From Candidatus Azotimanducaceae bacterium (lineage in GTDB: Bacteria; Pseudomonadota; Gammaproteobacteria; Pseudomonadales; Azotimanducaceae): a stretch of DNA of 64,000 nt. Made by a program: the position numbers and the translations under genes. This document shows, in pieces, positions 1,714-61,732 of the stretch; position 1 is the stretch's first letter, and every line of letters begins with the position of its first letter. Location: positions 1,828,936-1,892,935 of the forward strand of contig OZ244560.1 in assembly GCA_965217655.1 (NCBI GenBank), read 5' to 3'. The notes below the pieces were generated by a model that was not told where the DNA came from, did not search any database, and saw only the letters and a list, made by a program, of their open reading frames with translations.

Positions 1714-1714
1714 A

Positions 1715-29957: not shown

Positions 29958-29984
29958 CAGTCTACACTGGTATCGAGTCAATTA

Positions 29985-35158: not shown

Positions 35159-35169
35159 CCTAATTACAC

Positions 35170-35595: not shown

Positions 35596-35754
35596 GCAAA
35601 TACCACCAACGAATACCATTCTCCTTCCGACTTGGCACCACCGAGAGGCATTTCGAATTCGACGCTGCCCAAAGTCTCGCCGGTCTTCCAAAATTCAATC
35701 AATTTTTACCGCCATTAACTTACAGAGACCCGCCTCCGCTTAGAGAGTCTGATT

Positions 35755-39985: not shown

Positions 39986-40126
39986 GGCGGGGATACTACA
40001 GGGGGTGTCTATAAATGTCAACACCCTAAAATACGATTATGGCACTACATTAGCATTCTGGCGATCCGCTTCAATACAAATCAGCGACTTACGAGCAGAA
40101 AAACTTCAAAAAATTGGCAAAACAGC

Positions 40127-40315
40127 TCATTTAACCACGCAATGTGTTAAACATGGGCTAGCGTATTTTTCGAGAGCGAAGTTCGCTGTCTGAATTTCGA
40201 ATATGACCACGGCCAAGCCACCGAATACTGTACACGCCAGTACTACCCAAAGCATGGGGGGGGTGATTCGTCCGCGAGTAAACCAGTCGAACACTTTGAA
40301 TATAATCTCAAGCAT
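40127..40315 (-). CDS. Small hypothetical TM protein downstream of the RM gene
   Basis: 62-aa ORF, 11 nt after the MmeI-like stop, with one clear TM helix. Coding status is uncertain. Confidence 0.3.
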   Translation of the reverse strand: MLEIIFKVFDWFTRGRITPPMLWVVLACTVFGGLAVVIFEIQTANFALEKYASPCLTHCVVK

Positions 40316-40325
40316 GTGCTTGTCA

Positions 40326-43115
40326 CTACCTCAGGTTCGTGCGCTTTGTCTTCCCTTTGATTCCAACCCCCAGTGGTGAGAGCATTTTATCATAGAGCAT
40401 GAACAGACATTCTATACGCTCACGCTCAGAGGTGAATCCTTTGCGGCTGTATAGCCTGTCCACCGCACGGTCAAGGCGCCTATGCGCTTGGCGCAGGTTT
40501 GGCGGCATGATGTCGGGATCATAGAGATCGGCCAATGTCGCGTCAGGATGTGCGGCTCGGGCATCAAGTACGTCTTGAGCCAGCGGCTCCATTTTCGACA
40601 TGTCAGCGTCTTCCTGTGGGGCCGGGAAGGTATTGTAGACAAGGCCGATGGAATAACGGTAATCGCTCTTTAGCCGACCACCAACATGTCGCAACCAGGC
40701 CATGTGCATAGCAGAGGTCAGTAGCGCGAAGTCCACCAAGGTGGCATTTTCCAGTAAGCGAACGAGGTTGCTCGGGATAACCGGTGGCTCCAACCAGCCA
40801 ATGGGCACATATTCCCGGCGCTCCGAGCTGACTTCTGGAATGACCAGAAACGGCGTGGTAGGTAGAACGTTAACATGATAAATCGCTGGTGTTTCTGCCA
40901 ACTTTTGCGTAGGTCGGCTCCTACTGGCTTTCCGGTATGCTCGGACTGCTGCAATTCGTTCCCGCACACGAGGAAGCCGCGCCAGCAAATTCGGCGGTGT
41001 GTCATGCAGGACTAATATCCAGCGTGCACCGCCTTGCAGATATTCCCGCGCGCCGACATAAGGGTGCAGTAAGGACTCGGCATCTGGTTCGATGTCCAAA
41101 AACGCCGCCCGCTCATCTGCGTCAAAGATGAAATTCCCGCCATCAATTGGCTTCGAGCCGATGATAAGCCTACCCATCCCGTTGATCGGCCTGATTTCCT
41201 CATGCACTGTGAGATGGGGGTTAGCAAGCCCACCTGCGTCGAACAGGTAGGGCGACAGCTTGGCATGATGGCTTTCTTCTGGTTCGCCGTTGATATCGGG
41301 ATAGCTGAACAGGCGTTTGTCTGCTCTCGTGTTTTCATTCTTGTCGAGGCCGACAATCACGACATGTACATGCGCTTTACCGCGTACGTCGGACCCCCAG
41401 TTGAAAGTGCGGTGAGCGAAGGCGATTTCCAGCTGGCAGCGGTCGAACAAGACCGGCCACAGTTGTGCCGCCTGCTCACCCTGACTGATCGAATTGGTCG
41501 CAACAAATCCGATCCGAGCTTTGCTTGTCCTGACATACTCCCCTGCCTTTAGCAACCATGCAGTCACATAGTCAAGCGTGCCGCCGGTCTTGCCGAGCGC
41601 GGCAATCCTTCGCACCTGGGCGCGCTGCACCTCTGTCTGTAACTTCGCGCCCACGAAGGGCGGATTGCCGAATACGAAGGAGCACGCTTCCGGCGGCAGC
41701 AATTCCGACCATTCGGTTTCCAGCGCGTCCCCGTGCATGATGTGCGGTGACGTTCGCAAGGGGATGCGTACATAAATCTGACCAAACTCCAGGCTGAGTC
41801 GATTATTCATGATGTGGTCCATCATCCACATTGCGGTTTCTGCGATGCGAGTCGGGAACTCACCAATTTCAATTCCGTAGAACTGATCGACATCGATCAG
41901 CGATATTGTTTCCGTATACATGCCCCTTTGACGTGAATGGAGAGGATACAGTTCTTTCAGCACTTCGATTTCAAGCGTGCGCAATTCCCGGTAAGCAATG
42001 ATAAGGAAGTTGCCGCATCCGCAGGCGGGGTCGAAGAACCGCATCCGCCCAAGCTTCTCTTGAAGCTGGCGCAACGCTGCTAGACGACGACTATCCTTAC
42101 GGTTTTTAAGCCGCAAGAATTCAGCCTGCAGATCGTCCATGAACAGAGGCTCGATCACCTTCAGGATGTTCTTCTCGGTGGTGTAGTGTGCACCTTGGGC
42201 ACGGCGGACATCCGGGTCCATCACCGATTGAAACAGTGCGCCGAAAATCGCAGGTGAGATGTTCGTCCAGTCAAAGCGGCAGGCGTCGAGTAGCGCCTCT
42301 CGCATGGTCGTGTTGAAAGCCGGGATACGCAAAGGCCCGTTGAACAGGTCGCCATTGATATAAGGGAAGCGTACAAGGTCTTCGTCCAACGTTGCAGTGC
42401 GGTCAACCTCCGGCGTATCCAGTACCTGGAACAGTTGCGATAACAAAGGTCCGAGATCGGCACCGTCTACACTTGTGCGCGTCTCGATGAAATCGAGGAA
42501 GATGTCGCGCGGCTCGAAGATGCCAGTGTCATCGGCGAACAGGCAAAACACAGTTCGAACCAGGAAACATTCAAGATCGTGACCACGGTAACCCGCCTCG
42601 TCGAGGGCATCGTGCAGCCGCCCGACCAATTCGGCAGCCTTGATATTGGCCGGATCCTGGTCGCGGAAGGTCCGTCGTTGTATACCGAGGATGAAACCGA
42701 AGTGCTCTACATGATCTGGCAGATCTTCAAGGGCGAATGCAACCTTCCTGCGCTCGTCAAGATCGTGCAATTCGAAGGTCTGAAAGTCACTCACCAGGAT
42801 GTAGCGGGGACGGTCTCGTTCCGGGAGAGCATCAAAATATTTCCCGGCCTGATCGTAGGCTTTGTCGAGATCGCGCCCGGCGCTCTTCTGCTCTACTATC
42901 AGGACACTCGGCCAGAACAGGTCGATAAATCCCGACCGGTTGTCCAGCTTCGCCACATGCTCTTCGTAACGAGCAACGGTACGGCGCTTTACCCCAAACA
43001 CCTCAAAGAATTCATTATAGAAACTTTGCGTCTCTCCCTTCTCGTATGCAGCATCTTGCCAGTCTGTGGTAAAAACAGAAGCACGGGTGCGAATTTCATT
43101 CCATGAAAGGCGCAT
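40326..43115 (-). CDS. MmeI-family type IIL (type IIG) restriction-modification enzyme
   Basis: The N-terminus MRLSWNEIRTRA...SFYNEFFEVFGV...GFIDLFWPSVLIVEQKSAGRDLDKAYDQAGKYF parallels the MmeI N-terminus as I remember it, including the D-X9-EXK nuclease motif (D65, E75, K77). Methylase motif I is FDPACGCGNFLI and motif IV is FGNPPFVG. 929 aa. Confidence 0.85.
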   Translation of the reverse strand: MRLSWNEIRTRASVFTTDWQDAAYEKGETQSFYNEFFEVFGVKRRTVARYEEHVAKLDNRSGFIDLFWPSVLIVEQKSAGRDLDKAYDQAGKYFDALPERDRPRYILVSDFQTFELHDLDERRKVAFALEDLPDHVEHFGFILGIQRRTFRDQDPANIKAAELVGRLHDALDEAGYRGHDLECFLVRTVFCLFADDTGIFEPRDIFLDFIETRTSVDGADLGPLLSQLFQVLDTPEVDRTATLDEDLVRFPYINGDLFNGPLRIPAFNTTMREALLDACRFDWTNISPAIFGALFQSVMDPDVRRAQGAHYTTEKNILKVIEPLFMDDLQAEFLRLKNRKDSRRLAALRQLQEKLGRMRFFDPACGCGNFLIIAYRELRTLEIEVLKELYPLHSRQRGMYTETISLIDVDQFYGIEIGEFPTRIAETAMWMMDHIMNNRLSLEFGQIYVRIPLRTSPHIMHGDALETEWSELLPPEACSFVFGNPPFVGAKLQTEVQRAQVRRIAALGKTGGTLDYVTAWLLKAGEYVRTSKARIGFVATNSISQGEQAAQLWPVLFDRCQLEIAFAHRTFNWGSDVRGKAHVHVVIVGLDKNENTRADKRLFSYPDINGEPEESHHAKLSPYLFDAGGLANPHLTVHEEIRPINGMGRLIIGSKPIDGGNFIFDADERAAFLDIEPDAESLLHPYVGAREYLQGGARWILVLHDTPPNLLARLPRVRERIAAVRAYRKASRSRPTQKLAETPAIYHVNVLPTTPFLVIPEVSSERREYVPIGWLEPPVIPSNLVRLLENATLVDFALLTSAMHMAWLRHVGGRLKSDYRYSIGLVYNTFPAPQEDADMSKMEPLAQDVLDARAAHPDATLADLYDPDIMPPNLRQAHRRLDRAVDRLYSRKGFTSERERIECLFMLYDKMLSPLGVGIKGKTKRTNLR

Positions 43116-43422: not shown

Positions 43423-43581
43423 TCATGTAGAAGCCGAGTCGCATATTGACGATTCATAATCAGTGGCAGAGACAAACCCATCTAGGATTTTTGCTTTTTC
43501 ACTCCATCTGGCGTCGTGGTACTTCATCTGGACACTTCTCAGTAGCTCCATTCGTGCTGAGAAACACATCATTTTCGTCAT
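43423..43581 (-). pseudogene. N-terminal scrap of an integrase-type (rve) transposase
   Basis: Manual translation gives MTKMMCFSARMELLRSVQMKYHDARWSEKAKILDGFVSATDYES. This resembles the HTH leader (..RY..AS..EK..ILDEF...TGY.RK) of DDE transposases and is truncated after 52 aa. Confidence 0.4.
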
Positions 43582-43835
43582 CTAAATACTCTAATCAGTC
43601 CCAAGATAGTGTGATTTTAGATGAGGCAGCGATCCTTCATTAGTGTGATTTTTAGTGAGTCAATGCGGGGCCTCAGGATTGTCAGAAATATTGCGAGATG
43701 ATAAAAAGTCTAGCATCTCTTGGACGCCTTGGTCATCAAACCCTTGGGCACGAAGGAAGTCTGCGTTTTGTTGTTGAGTCGCCAACCGGATCACGTCTGT
43801 CTCCAGTGATTGGGAAGCGATCAATTCAAGCAAGC

Positions 43836-44306
43836 TTACCTCCCCGACACCCGTTCAACGTACTCTTTCACCAGGAGCAGATTCTCCATTGAACCCTCCA
43901 GCAAAAGGTCCATGGGCGCCTTGCCTTTCAAAACTTTCTGGGGTTCTCTCAGCCATTCGTTCTCAACAGCCTCGTCTCGAAAGAGAGCGGACAACAACTT
44001 TCTGATCTGAAAGAGATGGGCAATTCGGTCTTTTGCATCTCTTCCAGTAAGAGTCTCGTTCCCCTGTAGCACGGCATTCACGTATGGCATCCGAGAAGGT
44101 TCCATTCCCAGCAAAATACAGGCTTTTTCTGCTTCCAATTGCCAGGTAGAGAGCAGTTGATTGACGAACCTGATAGGACCAGTGATTCTGCCACGGTAGG
44201 AGGGTCGTATTGTCGTTTGTGCTTCATCACGGAGTAATGCTGCTTGTTGTAACCCAAGGACAACTAATAGTCGCTGTAGTGATCGATTTATCTCCTGCAA
44301 TCGCAA
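43836..44306 (-). CDS. Xre/MbcA/ParS-type antitoxin (DUF2384 toxin-binding domain), orphan
   Basis: The C-terminal ENEWLREPQKVLKGKAPMDLLLEGSMENLLLVKEYVERV is the DUF2384 signature (W....N..LgG..P..ll.t..G...V...L). TTG start. No RES or other toxin ORF lies downstream. Confidence 0.65.
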   Translation of the reverse strand: MRLQEINRSLQRLLVVLGLQQAALLRDEAQTTIRPSYRGRITGPIRFVNQLLSTWQLEAEKACILLGMEPSRMPYVNAVLQGNETLTGRDAKDRIAHLFQIRKLLSALFRDEAVENEWLREPQKVLKGKAPMDLLLEGSMENLLLVKEYVERVSGR

Positions 44307-44345
44307 ATGAACCTCGCCTAAAAAGATGAAGAGCCCCCGTTTTAC

Positions 44346-44877
44346 TGGACACCCAGTTAAGCACTTTCCTGCTCAAACTGCATCGGAATTTTATTTCCGA
44401 TAGCTGAATGTCTTCTTTTTATCTTTTTCGGTTGTAATATATTTCACCCGACTCATGAGACGAATTGGCCAGGTCTTCTTATGCGCATCAATGAATCGAT
44501 ACCTCAAGATATCGACAGCTATCGCAGTCTTGTACATGATTTTTCCTGCATGAAGAAGACCGACGCTTTCAGGACATCTTTCTCCATCCATAAGCGCCGG
44601 TTTTCAGACTCCAAGTCCCGAATCCTCTTCTGATCCGGAGTCAACTTACCCTGGCCTGGGAACGCATCGCTTCCGTCAGCCTCCAATGCGAGCTGCCAGC
44701 GCCTGATTTGATTTGGGTTTACGTCCAAACTCCGGCCAGCTTCTGCTTTGCTGTAGCCGTGTTCTGTCACCAGACTCTCCGCCTCGCGTTTGAACTCAAG
44801 GGTATATCTTTTTCTTGTGCGTTTGCTCATAGAGCACCTCGTTTTGAATCATTATATAGCTCTTAACCTGGTGTCCA
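44346..44877 (-). mobile_element. Internally deleted IS3-family element (both IRs, orfA, stub of orfB)
   Basis: The ends TGGACACCAGGTTAAGAGC (reverse complement of 44859-44877) and TGGACACCCAGTTAAGCAC (44346-) form an imperfect inverted repeat; 16 of 20 aligned bases match when one flanking base is included. Only about 530 bp lie between them. Confidence 0.65.
44519..44830 (-). CDS. IS3-family transposase OrfA (HTH)
   Basis: MSKRTRKRYTLEFKREAESLVTEHGYSKAEAGRSLDVNPNQIRRWQ...LESENRRL. ORF 44391..44591 carries an orfB stub (YRFIDAHKKTWPIRLMSRV). Confidence 0.8.
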   Translation of the reverse strand: MSKRTRKRYTLEFKREAESLVTEHGYSKAEAGRSLDVNPNQIRRWQLALEADGSDAFPGQGKLTPDQKRIRDLESENRRLWMEKDVLKASVFFMQEKSCTRLR

Positions 44878-45074
44878 GAATTTCGGGGGAAGATCAGCTC
44901 TTAACATTGGACAAAATTGGAAGTGGATTCATTGGCAATCTTCGGATATTATTGATTTTGTGACGTGAACACCACGACAACGGAATTAAGGCGGCTCGAC
45001 GATTGAACGTTTTCGCCATGCGCGGAAACAAAAAAGTCCCAAGGGCCGCCGTCCTATCCAGGGCCGTCCTTGTT

Positions 45075-45866
45075 CTAGGACGGCCCTAAGTATTTTTCAA
45101 CATTTGGTACGAATGTCAGATACTGGCCGAATACACGATATTTCAGGTCCCACAAAGTCTTTTTTGACAGTTTGTTGGGGAACGAAGGTCTGTCACGCGT
45201 AACCGCGTGCTCAGGATCAAGCGTGTCGATCATCGCATGAACCACGATCCCGTAACGAAGGAGTCTCTGGCGTTCAGATGTGTGTCGGGTCCGAAACAGG
45301 GTTTGTGTCAAGTATTTTAACCATCTTTGGGCTTCAGGATTACATTCCATCAGTCGTATGAACTCTATGAACAAAATCGTTTCCTGTTGACCGTCGTTGT
45401 GTCGGGTCATCATAAGTTCTCCGACCGCACGCTGCGATATTCTATCGACGAGCCGAGTCCTGCGAGATGCGATGTGATTCATGAAACTTTGAAGCTGCAT
45501 GCCACGAATATCCTGAGTAATCGATACATACAGCGCTTTGCGGTGAAGTATCTCGATATTAGCCCATAGGTTCACCATCAGGAAAGTAAGGCTGGTGAAG
45601 TCCCTGTTCTCGATGCGTCCAGCTAATGGGTCTACATCGTAGATGCTTTGAAAGTCCTCTTGTGCCAGCGACAGTAGTTTGCCTACTAATTCATCGGCAG
45701 ACTTCAGCAAAGGGTCGAGGTGCTCATCAATGAATCGCTCTGATGTTATCTTTCTCTCGGAACGGCGGCTATAATGCTGGTACAGAATTTCCAATCCTTT
45801 GGCGGAAAAGGCTCCAAAAAAGCCAGCGGAAGCCCCCACTATAAACAGTTTTAACCACTCATCCAT
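45075..45866 (-). CDS. Hypothetical protein with one N-terminal TM helix
   Basis: 263-aa AT-rich ORF (WLKLFIVGASAGFFGAFSAKGL). No motif recognised. A GGGCCGTCCT/AGGACGGCCC hairpin overlaps its stop. Confidence 0.5.
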   Translation of the reverse strand: MDEWLKLFIVGASAGFFGAFSAKGLEILYQHYSRRSERKITSERFIDEHLDPLLKSADELVGKLLSLAQEDFQSIYDVDPLAGRIENRDFTSLTFLMVNLWANIEILHRKALYVSITQDIRGMQLQSFMNHIASRRTRLVDRISQRAVGELMMTRHNDGQQETILFIEFIRLMECNPEAQRWLKYLTQTLFRTRHTSERQRLLRYGIVVHAMIDTLDPEHAVTRDRPSFPNKLSKKTLWDLKYRVFGQYLTFVPNVEKYLGPS

Positions 45867-45972
45867 ACCAAATGCCTATCTATACCACTGCCATCTTCAT
45901 ACTTATTCGAAAGAGTAGGATATGTTTTGACTGCTATTAGTACCTTTTCCCTGGCCATATGTTGTCATTAAT

Positions 45973-46872
45973 CTATAGATTGATGAAGGTTGTTTCCTTT
46001 GGGAGGGTTATTCGTAATTTGTCCGCGATTCTTCCACGATGACACTGGTTATGGGATTCTTCAAAACAGGTTATCGCGATACGACGATTACAGTGGAAGT
46101 CATCCTCCAGTTCCTTAACTTTCTCTATTTGTTGTTCCAATACAGTTCTCTCATATTTCTTGAAAAGTGCATCGTAATCTGATTGTCTGTTCAAAGATTG
46201 CCGGTCATTCGATTCAATCCCCAGCTCTGGCAGATGCTTGTATTTAATAGAAAAATCACTTAGAAGTTTAGACAAGACGGTTTTCGAAAAACCATATTTC
46301 CTGCTAAAGGGATTCTTTCTGACATCAATTAGCATCCTTACATCATTGACAATGAGTTTAGTAAGGTAAGCTTCAATACTTAATCCCTCGTATCCTATTG
46401 TTGCAAACAAGGTTTTATAAAGAAATTTTGGACGGAGTTTGATAACATTTTCAAGGTCTTGACCTGACAGAGTTTCATCCAGTATCTCGCTGTTAATTGC
46501 ATAAAAGGGATAGTTCTTATAGATGTGCCTTACAAGATTCTTTCCTTTCAGTTCACCATATCTTTCTACATAAAGAGCCATTTTTTTGTCATCATTCCTG
46601 CTCAATTCTGATACGTAATTGTTGCCAGTCCGTGTAAGTTTCCAAGCACTGGTATCTTCCAGGTATCCAATGTCAATCAGCTTTCGTTTGTCCTTTACAG
46701 CCTGAAAGGAATAACAACCAAATCGATAGGGAACAAAATCATAGCTTTTCTTGTTTTCGCAAAGTCTTGTATATAGAAAAAGATGTTTTTGAAAATCAGT
46801 AGATGTCAGCACGCCTTCAAAGTGTTGTATCAAGGCGAGGAGTACCTTTTGTCGATAAAACAGCTTTGGCAT
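45973..46872 (-). CDS. DUF488-domain protein with an N-terminal YwgA/Panacea-like winged-helix extension
   Basis: The C-terminal half TIGYEGLSIEAYLTKLIVNDVRMLIDVRKNPFSRKYGFSK...LPELGI and CFEESHNQCHR fit the DUF488 pattern. The N-terminal FVPYRFGCYSFQAVKD...GYL resembles YwgA-like wHTH. The ATG at 46872 is preferred over the TTG at 46884. Confidence 0.55.
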   Translation of the reverse strand: MPKLFYRQKVLLALIQHFEGVLTSTDFQKHLFLYTRLCENKKSYDFVPYRFGCYSFQAVKDKRKLIDIGYLEDTSAWKLTRTGNNYVSELSRNDDKKMALYVERYGELKGKNLVRHIYKNYPFYAINSEILDETLSGQDLENVIKLRPKFLYKTLFATIGYEGLSIEAYLTKLIVNDVRMLIDVRKNPFSRKYGFSKTVLSKLLSDFSIKYKHLPELGIESNDRQSLNRQSDYDALFKKYERTVLEQQIEKVKELEDDFHCNRRIAITCFEESHNQCHRGRIADKLRITLPKETTFINL

Positions 46873-47048
46873 TAAGGCATCCAAAATTGAAATTATAGCT
46901 GACTAGGTATCAAAATCCGCAAAATTAAGAGCATGATTCCACGAATTGGACAGCATTATATGGAGATTTTGCGCTCAATCTCTGTAGGTAAACGACTCTG
47001 TTGTCGTATTACTGTGCCCTTGAGAGCCATCTGCGAACACCCTGATTC

Positions 47049-49460: not shown

Positions 49461-51017
49461 TTGAAAACAAGCCAAGAATGGATACAACCACAACTGCCGG
49501 ATTATAGAGATTACCAGAGATATTTTGGTCTGGATTTCTACCTGACACCAGTATTCGTGATGTCCAGTATTGTCATTGTGGCCTTTGTCGTTGGTTCTCT
49601 ACTCTTTCAGGAGGATGCGACAAGAGTTTTTGGTGACACCCGCATCTGGCTCACAACGAACCTTGATTGGTTTTTCATGATCACTGCTAATCTTGCCCTT
49701 CTGTTTTGCCTGTTAGTAGCATCCTCTTCTCTCGGCAAGATACGGCTCGGGGGGGCCGATGCAAAACCTGAGTACTCCAACCTGACCTGGCTTTCGATGC
49801 TCTTCGCAGCAGGTGTGGGCATAGGTCTGCTGTTTTTCGGGGTTGCTGAGCCGGTCTATTACTTCTATGCCCCTCCACTCAGCATTACCCCCGAAACAGC
49901 AGAGGCCGCAACCGCCGGTATAGCAGCATCGGTCTTTCACTGGGGTCTGCACGGTTGGGCAATTTATAGCATCGTGGGACTTTCTCTCGCTTTCTTCGCC
50001 TATAACCGGGGACTTCCTCTTACAATACGTTCAGTGTTCTATCCACTGTTGGGAGACCGCATCTGGGGCTGGCCTGGACACATCATTGATACTTTCGCCA
50101 TATTCGCAGGAATGTTTGGCCTTGCAACCTCGCTCGGATTGGGTGTTCAACAGATCACCTCCGGGCTCAATTATCTGTTTGATGTACCTGCGAACAACAT
50201 CACCATGCTGGTGTTGATTACCGTGATTACAATTATCGCTATGATATCGGTACTGACAGGGATTAATGTCGGTATCAAGCGTCTCAGCCAGTTCAACATG
50301 ATTCTCGCGTTCATATTGCTGTTGGCGGTTATAGTATTCGGCCCGACGTTTTACATTTTCCACAGTATCTTTGCCGGACTGGGTGACTATTTCATGAGGA
50401 TTGTGCCACTGAGCAACTGGGTAGGACGTACGGATTCCAGCTTTCTGCATGACTGGACCACGTTTTACTGGGCGTGGTGGATATCCTGGGCGCCGTTCGT
50501 TGGTACATTCATTGCCAGAGTTTCAAAGGGTCGGACGATTCGCGAATTTGTAATCTTTGTACTGCTCTTGCCGACGGTTCTATGTTTGCTGTGGTTTAGC
50601 GCCTTTGGGGGTACTGCGCTACACCAGTACATCACTGACGGCTATACCGGCGTGACGGAGAACGTTGTTGCTTTCAATCTGGAATTTGCACTATTCAAAA
50701 TGTTCGATCAACTTCCTTTGACGTTGCTGCTTTCCTCATTCGCCATGATTCTGACAATCATTTTTTTCGTTACCTCATCTGATTCCGGCTCGCTGATCAT
50801 TGCCACATTTGCAGCTGGCAGCAAGGATGATTCACCAGTATCTCAACGTGTTTTCTGGTGTATTCTTGAGGGGTTGGTCGCCACCGCGTTGCTACTGGGC
50901 GGAGGTCTGGTTGCGTTACAGGCAGCCTCGCTCGCAACCGGCTTCCCGTTCGCCTTTGTTCTATTGGGGATGGCAGTCTGTGTCTGGATAGAGCTTCGCC
51001 ACGAACAACGACTCTAA
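49461..51017 (+). CDS. BCCT-family (betaine/carnitine/choline) transporter
   Basis: The signature WTTFYWAWWISWAPFVGTFIARVSKGRTIREF. TTG start after AAGGAG. Confidence 0.88.
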   Translation: MKTSQEWIQPQLPDYRDYQRYFGLDFYLTPVFVMSSIVIVAFVVGSLLFQEDATRVFGDTRIWLTTNLDWFFMITANLALLFCLLVASSSLGKIRLGGADAKPEYSNLTWLSMLFAAGVGIGLLFFGVAEPVYYFYAPPLSITPETAEAATAGIAASVFHWGLHGWAIYSIVGLSLAFFAYNRGLPLTIRSVFYPLLGDRIWGWPGHIIDTFAIFAGMFGLATSLGLGVQQITSGLNYLFDVPANNITMLVLITVITIIAMISVLTGINVGIKRLSQFNMILAFILLLAVIVFGPTFYIFHSIFAGLGDYFMRIVPLSNWVGRTDSSFLHDWTTFYWAWWISWAPFVGTFIARVSKGRTIREFVIFVLLLPTVLCLLWFSAFGGTALHQYITDGYTGVTENVVAFNLEFALFKMFDQLPLTLLLSSFAMILTIIFFVTSSDSGSLIIATFAAGSKDDSPVSQRVFWCILEGLVATALLLGGGLVALQAASLATGFPFAFVLLGMAVCVWIELRHEQRL

Positions 51018-51763
51018 TTCACATGCGCCATACCACCGTCCACTGCCACGACTTCACCCGTTATGTAGCGCGACGCATCGGACGCAAAGAAAAGCACCAC
51101 GTCCGCAACATCGGCGCCATCGCCCCAACGTTTGAGTGAGATCATTTTTTCCAGGTTCTCAATAAGACCCGGAATATTCCGGCGGTTGTCTTCCCAGATT
51201 GCCGTCGTGATCAGACCTGGACAGATTGCGTTTACCCGAATTCCCCGGGGTCCCCAGTCCGCAGCCAGGGCACGGGTCATGGCATCCACCGCTCCCTTGG
51301 TGCCCGCATAGGCAACCCGGCCTGTGGGACCGCGCAGACTGGCAATGGAAGAGATGTTGATAACCGAGCCGCCGCCACGCTCGATCATGCCGGGTCCCAG
51401 ACCCAGCGTGAGCATTAACAGGGAACGGACATTGATCGAGAACACCAGGTCAAAGTCTTCCTCGGTGACTTCATCCGGTTTACGCCGCATGGGTATACCG
51501 GCATTGTTTACCAGGATGTCGACGCCACCGACCGTATCCAGCACACGTTGCGCAAGAGCCGTACCGGCACGGGGAGGAGAAAGATCAGCTTCCAGGATTA
51601 CCGGATCGTTTTTGAGGTCGGCAGCCACCCGCTCCAGATCTGACAGTGTGCGCCCACTGAGGACCACGCGAGCACCAGCGGCGTCCAGCGCTCGTGCGCT
51701 CGCTTCGCCAATCCCCCGGCTGGCGCCTGTGACAACAGAAATCTTACCGTTCAATTCGTACAT
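51014..51763 (-). CDS. Short-chain dehydrogenase/reductase
   Basis: TGASRGIGEA, NNAG and YAGTKGAV (YxxxK). The ATG at 51763 is preceded by GAGAGGAG. Confidence 0.88.
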   Translation of the reverse strand: MYELNGKISVVTGASRGIGEASARALDAAGARVVLSGRTLSDLERVAADLKNDPVILEADLSPPRAGTALAQRVLDTVGGVDILVNNAGIPMRRKPDEVTEEDFDLVFSINVRSLLMLTLGLGPGMIERGGGSVINISSIASLRGPTGRVAYAGTKGAVDAMTRALAADWGPRGIRVNAICPGLITTAIWEDNRRNIPGLIENLEKMISLKRWGDGADVADVVLFFASDASRYITGEVVAVDGGMAHVN

Positions 51764-51906
51764 ACATAAGCTCCTCTCAAGCACTATCCTGTCTGTTAGC
51801 GCCGATATTCTACAACATGTCAGACCAGGTCTGGTTTACTCCGATGTTTTCAAATGGTGGAGATTTATCTGGAACTGACGGATTGGCACTATGGATATTT
51901 CAATGA

Positions 51907-52326
51907 TCAGGACCCGGGCAGGGTCACCGTTGCAGTACCAAAGACGCGTGTTTCATTCTGTTTGTTCTTGATGGAGAGATCGAGTATCACCTCGTTCTTA
52001 TCTTCATCAATATCGGTAACCACGGCACCGACGATATGTTCATGGTCCGCCAGCATCGGCGCCCTGAATACTGTATCGATCTGTTTGATCGTACCCTTCG
52101 GCGCCCATTCGTGGATCACTTTAGTCAGCAACCCCATTCCCATAATGCCTGGCACCAGTGCACCGGGCAGGCCCTGAGCACGCGCCTTGTCATGATCCTC
52201 GAAACGGCCTCCACCGGAATAACCAACAGCTTCGGCAAAGCGACGTGTGGCTTCCAGTGTGGTATCAGGTTCAACATCGGGTAGATCCATCCCGAATTCC
52301 ACGTCGGAAAGTACCTGTACAGTCAT
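51907..52326 (-). CDS. MaoC-like (R)-hydratase hotdog subunit
   Basis: 139 aa. The motif region DHDKARAQGLPGALVPGIMGMG is typical of MaoC dehydratase. Confidence 0.75.
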   Translation of the reverse strand: MTVQVLSDVEFGMDLPDVEPDTTLEATRRFAEAVGYSGGGRFEDHDKARAQGLPGALVPGIMGMGLLTKVIHEWAPKGTIKQIDTVFRAPMLADHEHIVGAVVTDIDEDKNEVILDLSIKNKQNETRVFGTATVTLPGS

Positions 52327-52781
52327 GCCGGTCTCTCCCGAATCACCTGCCGCGAATCTGTGCTCGCCAGGTGGTTGCCGGCATCATCGTAGAGTTGCAT
52401 GCGGGACACCAGGAATACCATCGTGCCGGAACGCCCACTCTTGGCATATATATCGTGCAGATGGGTTCGTCCGGTCAGGGGCACACCGCACCGGACAGGT
52501 ACAATACTACTCACTGCCTTACCTCCATCCATGGATATTCCGCCCAGTGACGGAAAGTCGATGGGGAGTCGACGTCCTGACGCCAGACTGGCGAGTATGG
52601 GCAGGCACGCCTGAAAATTCGGGTGTGACGGGTCTGTAAACTCTGTTCTTGTCTCACCAAAGGCTGCAGCCACATTGACGGATCTATCCGCTTCGATGAC
52701 AAAGCCGGTACGATCGAATTCCAGGTCCAGAAACTCCGATCGCAATTTTTCGATGTCCGGTATTTCTGTCACTCGATTCAA
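52323..52781 (-). CDS. MaoC N-terminal-like hotdog subunit (non-catalytic partner)
   Basis: 152 aa. It overlaps both the upstream and the downstream gene by 4 nt. The pairing resembles heterodimeric HadAB-type hydratases. Confidence 0.6.
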   Translation of the reverse strand: MNRVTEIPDIEKLRSEFLDLEFDRTGFVIEADRSVNVAAAFGETRTEFTDPSHPNFQACLPILASLASGRRLPIDFPSLGGISMDGGKAVSSIVPVRCGVPLTGRTHLHDIYAKSGRSGTMVFLVSRMQLYDDAGNHLASTDSRQVIRERPA

Positions 52782-53296
52782 TTCGTCAGGATTTCGATTG
52801 CCTGATCGCAGGCTGTTTCTGCACGTCTTTTAATCTCGTCATGAGTCAGGCTGCCAAGCGGATGGTCCAGAAGAGCAAAGGGATAGTCGGGCAAGCCTAA
52901 CATGCGCGCCATGTTCCTGGCTGTGACCTCAAATGGCGAGGTACACAGGACCACAGCCCGCTTACCGGTCTGCTCAAAGGTGATACCGTCGTGCAAACTG
53001 CACGTCGAGCAACTTCCTCAGTCTCCTGATGCGGTAATCAGGTAATCGCACTCCGGCGAGAGATTGGTCAGTATATCCGACGATGCAGGTGCGCTGGCGT
53101 TACCCTTGACCATCATCGGCAAAACCCTGCCGCCGAACCGCGACTGTAATAATGCCGCGGTCTCCGTCAGTAATTTGTCACCGTTGACTTTATGGTTCCA
53201 CAACAGGCCAATGGTCAATCCATCGAGACTGGTGAGTGCCGGAGCCCTTTGCGATTCCTGAATGTTGGCGGGGATTGTTGGATCAACTAGTTTCAT
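52778..53296 (-). CDS. UGSC-motif protein, probable selenoprotein (in-frame TGA at 53020..53018 read as Sec)
   Basis: Track ORFs 53018..53296 and 52778..52996 are in the same frame. Read together they give ...DYLITASGD-U-GSCSTCSLHDGITFEQTGKRAVVLCTSPF.... The downstream ORF has only a TTG start and no RBS. A SECIS-like hairpin follows the TGA. Confidence 0.65.
52986..53020 (-). promoter_or_regulatory. UGA plus bacterial SECIS-like hairpin
   Basis: The mRNA reads UGA-GGAAGUUGC-UCGA-CGUGCA-GUU-UGCACG-ACGG. That is a perfect 6-bp apical stem with a GUU loop, extended by 3 more pairs across an A.A mismatch, starting 9 nt after the UGA. Confidence 0.55.
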
Positions 53297-53319
53297 GGCT
53301 ACTCTCTTATACTAAAGGC

Positions 53320-54360
53320 TCAGCAATCTATGCAGACGCCGATGGACTGCGTCTGCATGATGGAGCCCCTGCCGCGGCTCCAGGACGGTATAAAACACGA
53401 ATGACCACCAGCATCGCCACCGCCTACTGTGATGAGGATATCGTCCGGCACAAGACCGCGGTGGATGTCCTGTCTGTCCTGCTTGTCATTTTTTCTCTGG
53501 ATCTTTCCAAGTCGTTCCATGACCGTTCTGGGCTGCTTCGCCTGTTCGAACAGATATTCCCTGACATCTCCTTTCGTCCAGCCGCTTCGGGCAACAATCT
53601 CGACGTGTTCCGGGGAGAATATGACCACACTTTGTCCCGCACTGATACAGCCGTAGTTGGCCATGGCATCGGCCATGGTATCCAGAATGGCTTCCGGCGT
53701 ATTGCCTCCATGGTTTTCTACATTGCAGAACCCGGCACCCGCGAATACAGTGACCGAACTGACCCCTTCTGGATAACCGAACTCCTCGCACAACAATGGC
53801 CATGGATTCTTATCTGCCCGTTCGGCAATGCAAAAGCTGTATTTCCCGGGGTTCCCCTGCGTCGACTTGTCGGCGATTCCCGGAACGATCTTGAAAACGT
53901 TCATAAGCGTCAGTCGAATGGTGCGGCCGATTGTCGCGTTAGCACGATTACCGGGGCCAAAAAGGTTGACTCCCGCGTTCATGCCGATTTCATCGACAAT
54001 TGGTCCGCTGACAATCAGCAGGTGGCCGGAGCCGCCTGTACTGACTGTGCTGCCGTGGAAATTGAACGGTTCGCGATCCATCGCCTCGAATGCCGCCACA
54101 ATTACTGGAAAGTAATCGGGCAGACAACCTGCCATCACAGCGTTTACCGCTGCGGCGTGAACGGTCAACTCCAGTCCGGTTGCCGGGTGATGCGCCAGGA
54201 CGGTTTCTGCGGGTCTGCCTTCCATCACCATCATGGCTTTTACGCGGCTTTCTTCCGGGGGCACGACGGGCAGTCCATCAGTCCAGCCTTGTTCATAACA
54301 GAAGTCCATGGCCTCTAACAGATCATCTTGAACTTCGTGGATTGACTGTGCTTCTGACAT
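53320..54360 (-). CDS. Conserved-looking hypothetical protein (346 aa), first gene of the UGSC operon
   Basis: Protein-like composition (EQGWTDGLPVVPPEESRV..., ends GVCIDC). No family recognised. The antisense 360-aa ORF 53236..54318 is rejected. Confidence 0.6.
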   Translation of the reverse strand: MSEAQSIHEVQDDLLEAMDFCYEQGWTDGLPVVPPEESRVKAMMVMEGRPAETVLAHHPATGLELTVHAAAVNAVMAGCLPDYFPVIVAAFEAMDREPFNFHGSTVSTGGSGHLLIVSGPIVDEIGMNAGVNLFGPGNRANATIGRTIRLTLMNVFKIVPGIADKSTQGNPGKYSFCIAERADKNPWPLLCEEFGYPEGVSSVTVFAGAGFCNVENHGGNTPEAILDTMADAMANYGCISAGQSVVIFSPEHVEIVARSGWTKGDVREYLFEQAKQPRTVMERLGKIQRKNDKQDRQDIHRGLVPDDILITVGGGDAGGHSCFIPSWSRGRGSIMQTQSIGVCIDC

Positions 54361-54631: not shown

Positions 54632-55300
54632 ATGAATGCAGTTATTGGTAACAGGGTACCCAACTTTGCGGCTTCGGAATGGGTACAGGGAGCACCTACA
54701 AATTTTGACCAGGAATTGGATCACATCGTTCTGCTGGAAGTCTTTCAGGTCAACTGCCCGGGTTGCTTTTTGCATGGGATACCCGAGGCAATCAACATTC
54801 ACAACAGATACAAGGATGAGGGGGTGCGCGTACTGGGCATGGCCACTGCCTTCGAGGATTTTGACAAGAATACACTGGAGAATTTACAACTGCTTGCCGG
54901 AACCGGCAGGGTTATAGGGGAGACCAGAATGGCACTTGGCATGAATGGGGTGCTCAGAGATGGTGACAGACTGACCTACGGCATTCCATTTCCACTCGGA
55001 ATGGACAACCTTACAAGGACGAGTGGTGAAGTCAGCATGGAGAATATCATGGAGTTCATCTATCAACAGTTTGCTGAGTTTGACTCAAAGCCAGAGAATT
55101 TCAGAAACGAGTTCATTGAAAGAGTACGTAACTACTTGGAATCAAAAGAATACTCGGCAGAGACCTTTGAGAAATTTGAGCTACGGGGAACGCCCTCTAC
55201 AATTCTGGTCGACAGAAAGGGAATCCTCAGGGATGTATCATTTGGACAGCCAGGGCACATTGACGGAATGATTCAAAAACTGCTGGACGAGGTAAAATAA
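54632..55300 (+). CDS. Thioredoxin-fold protein (TlpA/peroxiredoxin-like, CPGC active site)
   Basis: VLLEVFQVNCPGCFLHGIP; 222 aa. Confidence 0.7.
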   Translation: MNAVIGNRVPNFAASEWVQGAPTNFDQELDHIVLLEVFQVNCPGCFLHGIPEAINIHNRYKDEGVRVLGMATAFEDFDKNTLENLQLLAGTGRVIGETRMALGMNGVLRDGDRLTYGIPFPLGMDNLTRTSGEVSMENIMEFIYQQFAEFDSKPENFRNEFIERVRNYLESKEYSAETFEKFELRGTPSTILVDRKGILRDVSFGQPGHIDGMIQKLLDEVK

Positions 55301-57779: not shown

Positions 57780-57986
57780 TTTACTGGTTAACTTCACTTC
57801 TTTCCTACCAGCCACCATAGACGAAAGAACTGCACAAGTCGCTCTTTCAATGCTTCATTTGGGTTACAGGGTCGGGATGCATCATAGCGAGTCTGCAATC
57901 CGGTACAGGCAGATACACTGTCGAATGTTGAATATAGATCCGGCATTTTCTGAACTTAAGTGATAAGTCGATTAGTCCTGCCCAGA

Positions 57987-58388
57987 TCAGGTATTGACAA
58001 ACTTCCGGCAGAGGAATAATCCCAGCCAGGCCATGGGAAGATAGGCGACAATGAGATCCAATGCGGTGAACCAGAAGGGCGCTGGTATCATGAAACCAAC
58101 CGCAATACCGCCGACGAGGAACAGCAAGCCAACCAGCCAGGCCGACCAGGCCCGGTGACTCATCATTACAGCAATCAGGGCGCCTGTTAATGTTCCCAAA
58201 GCATGGGCAAGAAATGGAAACACAAAATGCCTGGCCTCGAACAAATGTATTGATGCTGCCAGTGACGCCATGTCGGCAACATCAACCCCTGCTGGTGGCG
58301 GGATCAGCAACGGTCCAACCGTTACCAGCAACATGTTGACAATACTGCCGGCAATCAGCGCCACAACAATTGCCAGTACATTCCACAT
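57987..58388 (-). CDS. Small hypothetical membrane protein
   Basis: 4 TM helices. The ATG at 58388 (MWNVLAIVVAL) is preferred. Confidence 0.45.
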   Translation of the reverse strand: MWNVLAIVVALIAGSIVNMLLVTVGPLLIPPPAGVDVADMASLAASIHLFEARHFVFPFLAHALGTLTGALIAVMMSHRAWSAWLVGLLFLVGGIAVGFMIPAPFWFTALDLIVAYLPMAWLGLFLCRKFVNT

Positions 58389-58757
58389 ACTTGAAAAACT
58401 CCTTTGTAAATTACAACTCAGGCCTCTGTCCAACCGTTTTCAGTACCATTAAACAGCTCCTGATGGTAACCCAAAATTTTTTCTCTTCATAGGCCCTTTA
58501 ATCCAGCAAGTTATTGTCCAAAAGCGCAAACATACACACTCTTGGAAAATTCTGTGATCAACGCAAAGAAACGGGATTTCATAACCGAACCGATGCCCTG
58601 TTCGAGGATAAGAGAGATGTTATCAGCCCTTAACAGTGTAACCGTGGGCTGACGACACCGGGCTCGATTGAACTCTCCACGACATCGACCAACAGACTTG
58701 ATCGGCAACCGACTATTTCTTATTATCTGTGCTCTATCCCAACCGAGGTCATCAGCA

Positions 58758-61577
58758 ATGCATACGACTGCACTGAATACAAAGAACGATGAATTGGAAA
58801 CCGTCGGGGGAAAAGGCAGATCGCTGGCAAAACTGTCGAATGCAGGATTCAATGTACCGGGCGGATTTCAAGTAACGACTGCGGCTTACCGCAGCTTCGT
58901 TGCCGACAATCACCTGCAGGAAAAAATCGTATCGCTTGCCAAACCTGTCGTCGTAGATGGCCGGGTGTCTTTTGAGCAGGCATCACGCGACATTCAGGCC
59001 CTGTTTATGGACTATGAACCATCGACAGCGATCAGTGAAGAAATCAAAACGACCTACGCGACACTTAACGATTGTCCGGTTGCCGTCCGCTCCTCTGCCA
59101 ATGCTGAAGACCTGCCGGGTTTGTCATTTGCGGGACAACAGGAAACCTATCTCAACGTCAAGGGTGCGGATGAGGTCGTCGCTGCGGTAAGAAGGTGCTG
59201 GGCGTCCTTGTGGACCCCGCAGGCGATCAGTTATCGGCATCAAAACGGCATCGACCAGAACACCGTGGCAATGGCGGTCGTTGTCCAGATTATGGTGCCA
59301 TCAGCAGTATCCGGAATTTTATTCACGGCAAATCCGGCCACCGGGGAACGGGCTGAAATCATTATCAATGCAAGTTTCGGACTCGGGGAAGCGGTGGTCA
59401 GCGGACAGGTCACGCCTGACACTTACATCGTTGACAAAGCGACTTTAACCACCAGGGAGACCATCATCGGGCCAAAGGAACAGCAGATCGTGGCCGATGG
59501 TGATCAAGGTACCAAACTGACTGATGTCGCTACCGGGGACCGCGACCAGTCATCGTTGTCCGATGACATGCTGCAAGAACTCGCGGCAACCGCGGTAGAA
59601 ATCGAACGACTCTACGATGGTGTACCGCAGGACATCGAATGGGCGTTTTCTTATGCGAGCGGCGCCCCTTCGCGCACCTCTGCTGAACGTGAATACGAGT
59701 TGCTGTTGCTGCAGTCACGTCCGATAACAAACCTGCCGGTCCAACCCATCGAGGTCGTTTGGGAACCGACACCACCGGCAAAGATCCTGTATCGACGGCA
59801 GATCGTGGAGAATATGCCAGATCCGATATGCCCGCTGTTTGAGGAGTTATACCTGACAGAAGGTCTCGAGTCCGGTCGCACGGGCCCGAACGAGAGGGTG
59901 GGGGGTGGTCCGGGCTTCGTCACCTGCAACGGATACGCCTACAACCGGGCTGACCATCCCATGAACCATATGGACCCGAATCTGCCGGAAGAGGAGTTAA
60001 AGGCTGCCTTTCTGCGGACGGTCGACGAAATCTGGGAGCGATATGGAGACCTGTCCGACAAGCAGGAACACGACATGGCGCTGTTTCGCTCGGCGTTATC
60101 AACCGAAGAACAGGCGGCGTTCGACGCCGTTGCCGCCGCATACGAAGGTGACAACCTTGCCCATGATCTGACCCTGCCACCTTCCGAAAATCCCACCTAT
60201 GTCGCCAACAACATGACGCAGAACAACGACGCACGCTGGCGGACCTGGCAGGAGGAGGCCCTGCCGCGTCTGGTTGGGACTGCCCGGAAGTGGCAACAGG
60301 TGGACCTCAAAACTGCTAGCGATGAGAAATTGCTGGCGGGTATTCGCGAAATGGGGATCGAGGAAGGCTACTACTGGACCGGCAACACCAGCCACACCTT
60401 TGGCATCGCCAAATCCACCGATGACCAGTTCCAGTGCTTCCTGCATGAGAACCTGCCTGACGATCACTATATAAGCGGTCAGTTTCTCACCGGCCTGGAA
60501 TCGAAATCGATGCTGGCCAACGCCATATTGTTCGAGATCGCCAAACAGATTCGCGCCAGCGAGGAACTGACCTACCTCATTATCGTGACGCCAACGAAGT
60601 TTGTCCTGCAGGCATTACACGACCATCCGGAAGGTGCTCCCATCCTCCAGGCCCTGGACGAGTATTACGAGGTCTATGGGCATCAGGGCTACAGCCTTGA
60701 TTTCATCGAACCGACCCAGGCCGAAGATCCATCAGCGACGTTTGCGTCGTTGAAGTCCATGGTCCAGGATGCCGATTACGATCCGAAGAATCAGGATGCC
60801 CGCGCCACCGCCGTACGTGAGCAAAAGTTCAGCGAAGTGTCCGAAAAACTTGAGGGCCTCACCTACTGGCAGTTCCGGTATCGTTGGTGGTTTGCGCGCA
60901 AATACAATCACATTCGTGAGGAAACCGCTTTCTACTTCGGCTATACATGGTCTGTCCTGCGGCCCATGGCGTTTGAATTGGGCCGGCGACTGGTTGATGC
61001 GGGGACGTTCCTCGATCGCGAAGATACGTTTTTCCTGGTAACCGAAGAACTCACCAGGGCTATCGCGGCGCGCAAGGCCGGTACGAGTCTCCCGGAACTG
61101 GGCAGGCTTGCCGCGGAACGTCGTGAACTGCGGGAGGCACGCAAGCTGCTGCACCCTCCAGGCACCATTCCGGAGGAAGCAAGCAACCTACCGGGAGTCA
61201 GGTTCAAGGAAACCCAAATCAGGAACGACGAATCCGGCGCTTCACTCAACGGTTTCGCGGTCAGTTCCGGAAGAGTTACCGCACCTGCCAGCGTCATCCT
61301 TTCCCAAAACGATTTCGACAAGATGGCGCCAGGATCGATTCTGGTCGCACCCAATACCACACCTGCCTGGACGCAGCTCTTTGCGCACGCAGTCGGTCTG
61401 GTGACGGATATGGGCAGCATCCTCGCACACGGTTCCATCGTGGCACGCGAGTACGGCATTCCGGCGGTACTTGGCGTCGGTAACGGCACAGTACGTATAA
61501 AACATGGACAGATAATCGCCATCGACGGCGACGCGGGCACCGTCCAACTACATGACGAGGAGCAAACTATCGCTTGA
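58758..61577 (+). CDS. PEP-utilizing enzyme family protein (PPDK-N ATP-grasp plus swivel His domain; PEP synthase / rifampicin-phosphotransferase-like architecture)
   Basis: N-terminus VGGKGRSLAKLSNAGFNVPGGFQVT...VAVRSSANAEDLPGLSFAGQQETYLNV. C-terminus TDMGSILAHGSIVAREYGIPAVLGV (phospho-His loop). Confidence 0.82.
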   Translation: MHTTALNTKNDELETVGGKGRSLAKLSNAGFNVPGGFQVTTAAYRSFVADNHLQEKIVSLAKPVVVDGRVSFEQASRDIQALFMDYEPSTAISEEIKTTYATLNDCPVAVRSSANAEDLPGLSFAGQQETYLNVKGADEVVAAVRRCWASLWTPQAISYRHQNGIDQNTVAMAVVVQIMVPSAVSGILFTANPATGERAEIIINASFGLGEAVVSGQVTPDTYIVDKATLTTRETIIGPKEQQIVADGDQGTKLTDVATGDRDQSSLSDDMLQELAATAVEIERLYDGVPQDIEWAFSYASGAPSRTSAEREYELLLLQSRPITNLPVQPIEVVWEPTPPAKILYRRQIVENMPDPICPLFEELYLTEGLESGRTGPNERVGGGPGFVTCNGYAYNRADHPMNHMDPNLPEEELKAAFLRTVDEIWERYGDLSDKQEHDMALFRSALSTEEQAAFDAVAAAYEGDNLAHDLTLPPSENPTYVANNMTQNNDARWRTWQEEALPRLVGTARKWQQVDLKTASDEKLLAGIREMGIEEGYYWTGNTSHTFGIAKSTDDQFQCFLHENLPDDHYISGQFLTGLESKSMLANAILFEIAKQIRASEELTYLIIVTPTKFVLQALHDHPEGAPILQALDEYYEVYGHQGYSLDFIEPTQAEDPSATFASLKSMVQDADYDPKNQDARATAVREQKFSEVSEKLEGLTYWQFRYRWWFARKYNHIREETAFYFGYTWSVLRPMAFELGRRLVDAGTFLDREDTFFLVTEELTRAIAARKAGTSLPELGRLAAERRELREARKLLHPPGTIPEEASNLPGVRFKETQIRNDESGASLNGFAVSSGRVTAPASVILSQNDFDKMAPGSILVAPNTTPAWTQLFAHAVGLVTDMGSILAHGSIVAREYGIPAVLGVGNGTVRIKHGQIIAIDGDAGTVQLHDEEQTIA

Positions 61578-61732
61578 ACTTACGAAACATCCTGCTGTCA
61601 GCGGCGTTCGCTTGTGGAAATGATCGAATAGCGAGCCCCGTTTCAGAGACATTCCAGTGACCTTTCTCTACGATAATGCCTGCCAGTTCCAAAGCTGTGG
61701 CGCCGACATCCAGCATCGCAGTCGGCTCCTTT

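Follow-up and report, generated by a model that had tools for sequence, protein, structure and literature searches.

A predicted UGSC-family selenoprotein gene with a coding-region SECIS hairpin and an adjoining, unannotated partner gene in an Azotimanducaceae genome

Organization of the UGSC locus

The stretch of DNA analysed here is 64,000 nucleotides (nt) from a Candidatus Azotimanducaceae bacterium (contig OZ244560.1, positions 1,828,936 to 1,892,935 of the forward strand; hereafter the window, in whose own numbering all positions are given), and it includes a gene predicted to encode a selenoprotein of the UGSC family, together with an adjoining gene of an unannotated family that we refer to as the partner. 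The UGSC gene is read on the minus strand, from an ATG at 53296-53294 through an in-frame TGA at 53020-53018 to a stop TGA at 52780-52778, a frame of 173 codons in the sequence as read, and the TGA at 53020-53018 is the sole interruption of the frame between 53296 and 52778. The joined product reads ...ITASGD-U-GSCSTCSLHDG..., where U is selenocysteine (Sec). The features of the locus are as follows.

52778..53296, minus strand: UGSC-family selenoprotein gene, 172 residues; one frame with a single internal TGA, Pfam and NCBIfam matches, and orthologues aligned over residues 1-170 or more
53018..53020, minus strand: UGA codon 93, predicted to be read as Sec, the U of the U-G-S-C motif; TGA in close orthologues, cysteine (Cys; TGC/TGT) in distant homologues
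53302..53308, minus strand: Shine-Dalgarno-like AAGAGAG, 5 nt upstream of the ATG at 53296; read directly from the sequence
53320..54360, minus strand: partner gene, 346 aa, of an unannotated family, with a product ending ...GVCIDC; its stop is 23 nt upstream of the UGSC start

A program that lists open reading frames (ORFs) cuts the UGSC gene into a 92-aa ORF, 53018..53296, which begins with the ATG, and a 72-aa ORF, 52778..52996, which begins with a TTG inside the gene. An original prediction, made by a model from the DNA letters and the ORF list, had proposed that the TGA is in frame with both ORFs, and direct reading of the minus-strand frame agrees. It had also observed that the downstream ORF has neither an ATG nor a ribosome-binding site (RBS), and this is borne out: the start is an internal TTG with no start signal upstream of it, and the whole segment 3' of the UGA contains no ATG, no RBS and no comparable start signal. 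We interpret 53296-52778 on the minus strand as one gene for a 172-residue UGSC-family selenoprotein, which naive ORF calling splits in two.

Family assignment

The joined protein matches Pfam PF24696 (UGSC) with an E value of 6e-51 and a score of 173.4 bits (the cutoff is 25), residues 3-171 corresponding to positions 2-171 of the 172-position profile. Its match to NCBIfam NF041046, obtained with C in place of U, scores 123.7 bits (E=5.7e-36); the name of this entry, 'UGSC family (seleno)protein', is the one used in the original prediction. Membership of the family requires a [U/C]-G-S-C motif, and its first position in the window protein is the UGA (GD-U-GSC). Judged by these matches the gene belongs to the UGSC family, and nothing essential appears to set it apart from the other members. 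It also resembles them in its length of about 170 aa and in having an aquatic proteobacterial host.

[quoted passage not shown] The marine-metagenome selenoprotein family to which the original prediction referred is the one described in these two papers. The 2008 GOS paper guessed that the fold is 'likely Trx-like', that is, like thioredoxin (Trx) (PMC2398784), and the function of the family is listed as unknown in reviews of 2022 and 2026.

Translation across the in-frame UGA

Relatives of the gene were collected by a tblastn scan with one genome per species, and the best 80 of 242 relatives were taken as the orthologue set. These 80 span Pseudomonadales/Azotimanducaceae, other Gammaproteobacteria, Alphaproteobacteria and Dehalococcoidia/Chloroflexota, and in each of them the alignment extends through the TGA and covers residues 1-170 or more. 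Codon 93 is TGA in every one of these 80 closest genomic orthologues, including one (L047) that reads U-G-R-C, and a TGA occupies this codon in 115 independent sequences. In distant homologues, of which many are actinobacterial, the column holds Cys (GVGD-C-GSC; P0003 and P0124-P0160). Homologues therefore cover both halves of the gene, in the Pfam match (residues 3-171) as well as in the tblastn alignments, with either TGA or Cys in the column between them; the GDCGSC of the distant homologues places the TGA at the site of a redox Cys (U-x-x-C), as had been proposed from the window sequence.

The segment after the UGA is the better conserved of the two, with 74% amino-acid identity among the orthologues compared to 56% before it, and 52% of the codons for identical residues in this segment differ synonymously. 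The combination of stronger conservation and much synonymous change is indicative of purifying selection on a translated sequence. From these comparisons it is very probable that the UGA at codon 93 is decoded as Sec.

Two database homologues (P0001 and P0002) are recorded with tryptophan (Trp, W) at the Sec position, GDWGSCSTCS. Presumably the W arises from a gene-calling pipeline that translates TGA as Trp, and entries of this type conceal selenoproteins as apparent full-length W-forms.

A SECIS-like hairpin within the coding region

Immediately 3' of the UGA is a hairpin with the position and shape of a bacterial selenocysteine insertion sequence (SECIS), with the following parts.

52990..53004, minus strand: upper stem-loop of the predicted SECIS, CGUGCA-GUU-UGCACG, spanning nt 17-31 (numbered from the U of the UGA); minimum free energy (MFE) hairpin, frozen synonymous sites and covariation
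52996-52998, minus strand: apical loop G23 U24 U25, a triloop on the 6-bp upper stem
52984..53011, minus strand: whole predicted SECIS including the lower stem, from the RNAfold centroid of 42 nt; the lower part is weakly supported

The segment UCGA-CGUGCA-GUU-UGCACG-ACGG begins 9 nt past the UGA, and the hairpin is its predicted MFE structure. This 23-mer has an MFE of -9.4 kcal/mol (z=-3.1, with 2 of 200 shuffles equally good), compared to -11.6 kcal/mol for the 42-nt segment and -7.4 kcal/mol for the bare 17-mer. The bacterial SECIS (bSECIS) model (PMC13188914 Fig. 2) has a loop of 3-9 nt, an upper stem of 4-16 bp, an MFE of at most -7.5 kcal/mol, a G in the first two loop positions that is usually followed by G or U, and a distance of 16-37 nt between the UGA and the loop. 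The window hairpin is within all of these ranges, with a loop of 3 nt, a stem of 6 bp, GU in the loop, a distance of 19 nt (offsets 3-21) and energies of -9.4 and -11.6 kcal/mol.

The lower stem is the weakest part of the hairpin. In the 42-nt centroid it consists of an A.A mismatch and the pairs C13-G33 and G14-C32, followed by U9-A36, G10-U35 and C11-G34. Of the 3-bp extension, C13-G33 and U12-G34 are already set by the Ser and Gly codons of the window's subfamily, and G14-C32 is paired in only 65 of 99 distinct Sec-form sequences. Thus of the hairpin first proposed, the 9-nt spacing, the 6-bp stem, the GU loop and the SECIS-like position and shape all stand when judged by the MFE structure and the bSECIS model, whereas the 3-bp extension is without independent support.

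The synonymous sites provide the first line of comparative evidence for the hairpin. In a codon alignment of the 80 orthologues, codons 98-101 are frozen (ACG in 78 of 80, and TGC, AGT and YTG in 80 of 80 each), with third-position entropies of 0.17, 0, 0 and 0. For all remaining invariant codons of the gene that specify Thr, Ser, Leu, Gly, Ala, Pro or Val this entropy is 0.66-1.88, and for the other Thr, Ser and Leu codons it is 1.1-1.8. The four frozen codons coincide exactly with the upper stem and loop.

Divergent Sec forms, added from a metagenome scan seeded with divergent UGSC members, provide the second. Three different upper stems are found among the Sec forms and all keep their pairing: CGUGCA/UGCACG in the window, CGUGGA/UCCACG where the residues are SWS[VI]H, and CGGCCA/UGGCCG where they are AASVA. 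Across the 99 distinct Sec-form sequences, 99.3% of cells have the upper-stem pair formed, all six pairs being counted. In a formal covariation count, double compensatory changes are present in five of nine pairs, and both sides are changed in 39 cells where 12.6 are expected. The covariation score is 0.186 compared to 0.093 in shuffles, none of 500 shuffles scores as high, and every slid control is far lower. A GUN loop is present in 98 of the 99 Sec forms and in none of 17 Cys forms; the latter retain C-x-x-C but not the AGU/GU loop or TCSLH, and read S-A-S-A-V-A in the same place.

One locus (L150, ~1954-2007) has an odd Sec form, GH-U-GSSTPW, with no Cys at +3. Its hairpin is different and a few nt further on (CCGCG-CGUGA-CGCGG), and it is the sole exception to the GUN-loop rule.

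The original prediction had singled out conservation of the hairpin in TGA-bearing orthologues as a point on which it could fail; the hairpin is conserved among them, and with compensatory changes. Its central interpretation, that a UGSC gene is recoded with Sec through a bacterial SECIS, is supported by the homologue column, the hairpin conservation and the compensatory changes together. Because the hairpin is contained within codons 98-103, it determines the choice of codons there as well as the residues T-C-S-L-H-D, and the invariant T-C-S-L-H peptide of the window's subfamily appears to be imposed by the RNA.

The window hairpin resembles the SECIS of E. coli fdhF in being within the coding sequence just after the UGA, in having a small apical loop, and in having G23-U24 in the same register as the bases that contact SelB. 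It differs from the fdhF element in that its loop is a triloop (or 5 nt, if A22-U26 opens) and its lower stem is short and poorly conserved. We therefore regard the window's recoding element, as far as can be judged by these comparisons, as an ordinary, if minimal, bacterial SECIS.

The partner gene

The gene at 53320-54360 belongs to a large family, with about 8000 word-index matches, all of which are named "hypothetical", and 5602 clusters at 50% identity (E<=1e-3). No Pfam or NCBIfam match to the partner was found at E<=1, nor any Pfam match at E<=10 for 64 diverse members, and neither phmmer nor two profiles gave a match in the PDB. There are several near-invariant motifs across the wide family, including D-G-L-P-x-x-P-P, N-A-x-M-A-G-C (with C79), R-A-N-A-x-x-G-R, C177-I-A-E and G-G-G. 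Six members of about 710-740 aa (P0166, P0171, P0177, P0183, P0185 and P0216) contain two tandem copies of the domain, and one of these (P0166) has no Pfam domain at all.

The partner adjoins the UGSC gene in all 80 of the genome loci, at 65-98% identity, and is usually upstream on the same strand, although sometimes convergent. It also adjoins UGSC in 72 of 81 divergent metagenome loci, and in the remaining nine the contig stops within 700 bp. In most of the metagenome loci UGSC is first, followed by the partner, so that the gene order is inverted between subfamilies. The partner is also near Cys-form UGSC genes, in Microbacterium and on other contigs. Overall, the two genes are together in 155 of 164 loci. 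No conserved third gene was found by clustering of locus ORFs or by Pfam analysis of 127 flanking ORFs.

In several proteins the two are fused. Seven proteins of 540-590 aa (P0222, P0229, P0231, P0248, P0267, P0285 and P0254) have a full N-terminal UGSC domain joined to the partner domain. Two others of 410-450 aa (P0176 and P0181) start with only the last ~60 residues of UGSC, and the DNA for one of these was informative: at P0181 (L084), positions 1568-3235 are one frame that reads ...GVGD-U-GGCTAWSVHD... and continues into the partner domain, with its own version of the hairpin, and the public gene calls cut it at the in-frame TGA into 93 aa and 443 aa. We interpret L084 as a Sec-containing fusion, and the N-terminal truncation of P0181 as a gene-calling artefact of the in-frame TGA; many of the database 'partner' proteins of 410-450 aa probably have the same origin. 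A fusion of UGSC with 'Unknown_1', which may be the partner family, is mentioned in the 2008 paper (PMC2398784).

The comparative evidence thus shows what appears to be an obligate genetic coupling of UGSC and the partner, fusions included. Adjacency in 155 of 164 loci together with the fusions, notwithstanding the lack of any annotation, implies a two-component selenoenzyme.

Predicted fold and relationship to other selenoproteins

Searches of the PDB with UGSC, by sequence or by profile, gave only insignificant matches, the best being to an Asp/Glu racemase (E=0.15). An AlphaFold2 (AF2) model was derived from P0001, a Sec-type orthologue of 53% identity with W recorded at the Sec position, together with 29 family sequences. 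The model has a predicted local distance difference test score (pLDDT) of 92.8 and five beta-alpha units, and the Sec position starts the helix that follows strand 3. The best Foldseek matches in the PDB are flavodoxins, lumazine synthase and the flavodoxin-like C-terminal domain of large catalases (TM ~0.45, E ~1e-4), and none is thioredoxin-like. The predicted fold is generic flavodoxin-like, and not Trx-like as guessed in 2008.

UGSC shares with the Trx-, Prx- and DsbA-like selenoproteins a U/C-x-x-C at a helix N-terminus and the interchange of Sec and Cys. It departs from the thioredoxin fold in that five parallel strands in a flavodoxin-like arrangement are predicted, and no Trx-family Pfam match to UGSC was found even at E<=10. 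The redox-motif part of the original prediction is therefore refined rather than overturned: the UxxC site holds, and its setting is predicted by AF2 and Foldseek to be flavodoxin-like rather than thioredoxin-like. The polar residues N34, K36, N38, K64, D92 and H145-P146 are invariant across the family. From the predicted strand positions N34, K36, N38, K64, D92 and H145 would cluster at the C-terminal edge of the sheet beside U93 and C96, which would point to a genuine pocket and not just a redox dithiol.

The PrdB and GrdB proteins offer a second comparison. These are small Sec-bearing subunits, of D-proline reductase and of glycine/betaine reductase respectively, each of which functions only together with its own partner subunit, the product of a neighbouring gene. 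They have a UxxC motif, as does UGSC (GOS Table 2, PMC2398784). They differ from UGSC in that the UGSC partner is of an unrelated, unannotated family, and in that the UGSC hosts are aerobic aquatic bacteria and not Stickland fermenters. UGSC has no similarity to PF07355 (GRDB) or PF09338 at E<=10, and none of 28 UGSC members matches PF07355. UGSC may thus be likened to Sec subunits of the PrdB/GrdB type by analogy, not by membership.

Proposed mechanism and alternative explanations

We propose that a single UGSC selenoprotein gene is recoded under the direction of the SECIS, and that its product forms a two-component enzyme with the partner. As an overall explanation we hold this with good confidence. 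By the standard bacterial pathway, the G23-U24 loop would recruit SelB.GTP.Sec-tRNASec as the ribosome nears the UGA, this binding being predicted. UGSC would be the selenol/thiol (U-x-x-C) subunit of the enzyme and the product of 53320-54360 the other component, supplying the conserved C79 and C177 (plus the C-x-x-C tail in the window's subfamily) and a substrate pocket for the other half-reaction. U93 could be a nucleophile or a redox centre, with Sec attacking either the substrate or a disulfide held by the partner, and C96 could resolve the intermediate as a selenenylsulfide. The linkage and fusions make a physical complex of UGSC and the partner likely. That UGSC and the 346-aa partner form an obligate two-subunit selenoenzyme of an undescribed kind, sometimes as a single chain, is a reading that we favour only slightly; the partner would provide the substrate site and two conserved Cys residues, and UGSC a Sec/Cys nucleophile in a G-D-U-G-S turn that is like a 'nucleophile elbow'. 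Any specific chemistry is at best doubtful.

Several observations weigh against parts of this proposal. The Sec-decoding capacity of the source genome is assumed: no tRNA-Sec was found within the 64-kb window (ARAGORN reports no tRNAs) or in 60 flanking UGSC loci, and no selA, selB or selD was seen either in the window, where Pfam scans covered 43 ORFs, or beside UGSC in the 60 loci. The hairpin lacks the bulged U17 that is needed by E. coli SelB, position 17 in the window being a C that is paired with G31, although the bulged U17 is a requirement of the E. coli protein and is outside the general bSECIS model. There is no Rfam match, either across the whole window at gathering thresholds or in 52900-53100 at E<=10. 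In longer contexts the folding energy is no better than that of shuffled sequences (z=-0.45 for 66 nt and z=-0.89 for 42 nt), and because of this the stability of the hairpin is not by itself beyond chance; it is the comparative evidence that lifts it above chance. The NF041046 score is 1.3 bits below the curated cutoff of 125 when U is written as C. As for the partner, no domain could be recognised in it, AF2 models it poorly (pLDDT 64) and with no Foldseek match in the PDB below E=1, and its C-terminal C-I-D-C (CxxC) is invariant within its own subfamily only. The flanking genes do little to define a reaction, since the 127 flanking ORFs match a heterogeneous set of 91 Pfam families. Most frequent among these are CoA-transferase III (7), luciferase-like monooxygenase (6), carboxylesterase (5), TctC (5) and TauD (4), a diffuse catabolic theme only; catabolism of small organic acids or osmolytes is hinted at by scattered neighbours of the CoA-transferase, enoyl-CoA hydratase, amidohydrolase, TauD and transporter types.

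Among the alternatives, the one that fares best is that UGSC is a free-standing Trx-like thiol/selenol oxidoreductase, with its linkage to the partner being mere synteny. A UxxC motif is typical of Trx-like redox proteins, this was the guess of the 2008 GOS paper, and the flanking genes are diverse. However, the AF2 model is flavodoxin-like, natural single-chain fusions exist, and the adjacency extends across phyla, Sec and Cys forms, and both gene orders when no other neighbour is conserved. We consider this explanation improbable.

A second alternative accepts that the UGA is translated, but as Trp or Cys, through near-cognate suppression or a reassigned code (code 4/25), rather than as Sec. 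The W recorded in P0001 and P0002 is consistent with this, and the Sec machinery of the source genome is unverified. However, TGA is the commonest stop codon in the window, ending 17 of 37 genes including both the UGSC and partner genes, so that it is not reassigned and the recoding would be context-dependent; the host, furthermore, is a Pseudomonadales gammaproteobacterium. The column aligns with the redox Cys of CxxC in a classic Sec/Cys pair, and the G23-U24 loop tracks the codon, since 98 of the 99 TGA forms have it and none of the 17 Cys forms does. A Trp or Cys reading is very unlikely.

A third possibility is that conservation after the UGA reflects constraint on the protein sequence GSCSTCSLHDG, with the hairpin a mere by-product. 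The residues are invariant in the close orthologues, the stem barely varies there, and the folding energy in longer context is unremarkable. Protein constraint does not, however, explain why third positions that are four- or six-fold degenerate are frozen (ACG in 78 of 80, AGU in 80 of 80, YUG in 80 of 80), and the Sec subfamilies with SWS[VI]H and AASVA keep the pairing and the AGU loop while the Cys forms are free of both constraints. It is extremely unlikely that the hairpin is incidental.

Finally, that the TGA is a genuine stop, leaving a pseudogene or two small genes with the downstream frame untranslated, is scarcely credible: the ORF lister does split the gene, public callers split homologues in the same way (93 + 443 aa at L084) and no Sec machinery is seen in the 64-kb window, but the half after the TGA is the better conserved (74% versus 56%) with abundant synonymous change, it has no ATG or RBS, the TGA is at the same codon in 115 sequences, and distant homologues have Cys there.

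Genes and strain-specific segments around the locus

In nucleotide sequence the window shares ~96% identity with OY762456.1, the chromosome of a Pseudomonadales metagenome-assembled genome (MAG). A scan of the whole window for in-frame TGA codons revealed no other plausible selenoprotein. Downstream of the UGSC gene, and co-oriented with it as its local operon context, are the following.

52323-52781 and 51907-52326, minus strand: two hotdog-fold (HadA/HadB-like) ORFs

The first of these has a TTG start, which shares bases with the stop codon of the UGSC gene (TTGA). A short-chain dehydrogenase/reductase (SDR) gene follows the hotdog pair (51014-52781, minus strand, for the group), and a convergent BCCT transporter gene is next (49461-51017). 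The hotdog-ORF arrangement is common only to the ~96%-identical locus L001, and is outside the conserved UGSC-partner module.

Comparison with L001 shows the DNA surrounding the selenoprotein operon to be a mosaic of insertions specific to the strain. One example is the segment 54441-55317 (~880 bp), which is absent from L001 and is interpreted as a strain-specific insertion. An ORF at 54632-55300 on the plus strand, divergent from and just upstream of the partner-UGSC operon, codes for a 222-aa thioredoxin-like protein with a VNCPGCF motif and weak matches to ResA and AhpC-TSA; a link between this protein and the selenoprotein module is possible. In a second example, 57781-61722 (3.9 kb) corresponds to 62 bp in L001 and contains a 969-aa ORF (58668-61577) with PPDK_N and PEP-utilizers domains. 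In a third, 43536-47027 (3.5 kb) corresponds to 294 bp in L001 and contains a DUF488 ORF.

Further to the left, 38141-43115 on the minus strand includes a type IIL restriction-modification enzyme of the MmeI family (929 aa, with all five MmeI domains) beside a DDE transposase (627 aa). The segment from 28000 to 36000 has a GC content of 0.44-0.47, compared to ~0.50-0.56 elsewhere, and may be a horizontally acquired island. In this low-GC stretch are genes for a Ser/Thr protein kinase (32104-33330) and a TPR protein (33278-35158), together with ORFs without Pfam matches (28527-29318 and 35755-37485).

Implications for the UGSC family

The family has been known since 2007 and its recoding mechanism is an established one, and what goes beyond the UGSC literature consulted here is the universal linkage to a partner, the lack of annotation of the partner family, and the predicted flavodoxin-like fold. 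The element at codons 98-103 is a clean example of dual coding, in which an AGU Ser codon always supplies the G23-U24 loop, and the three alternative stems and the hairpin-free Cys forms act as natural controls. The pairing or fusion of UGSC, an abundant selenoprotein family of aquatic environments, with one large unannotated family gives a concrete handle on its function, and the partner protein is the best lead to that function and is worth following up. If the two-subunit enzyme is real, then it would represent a widespread selenium-dependent reaction of aerobic aquatic bacteria, since UGSC is abundant in ocean and freshwater metagenomes.

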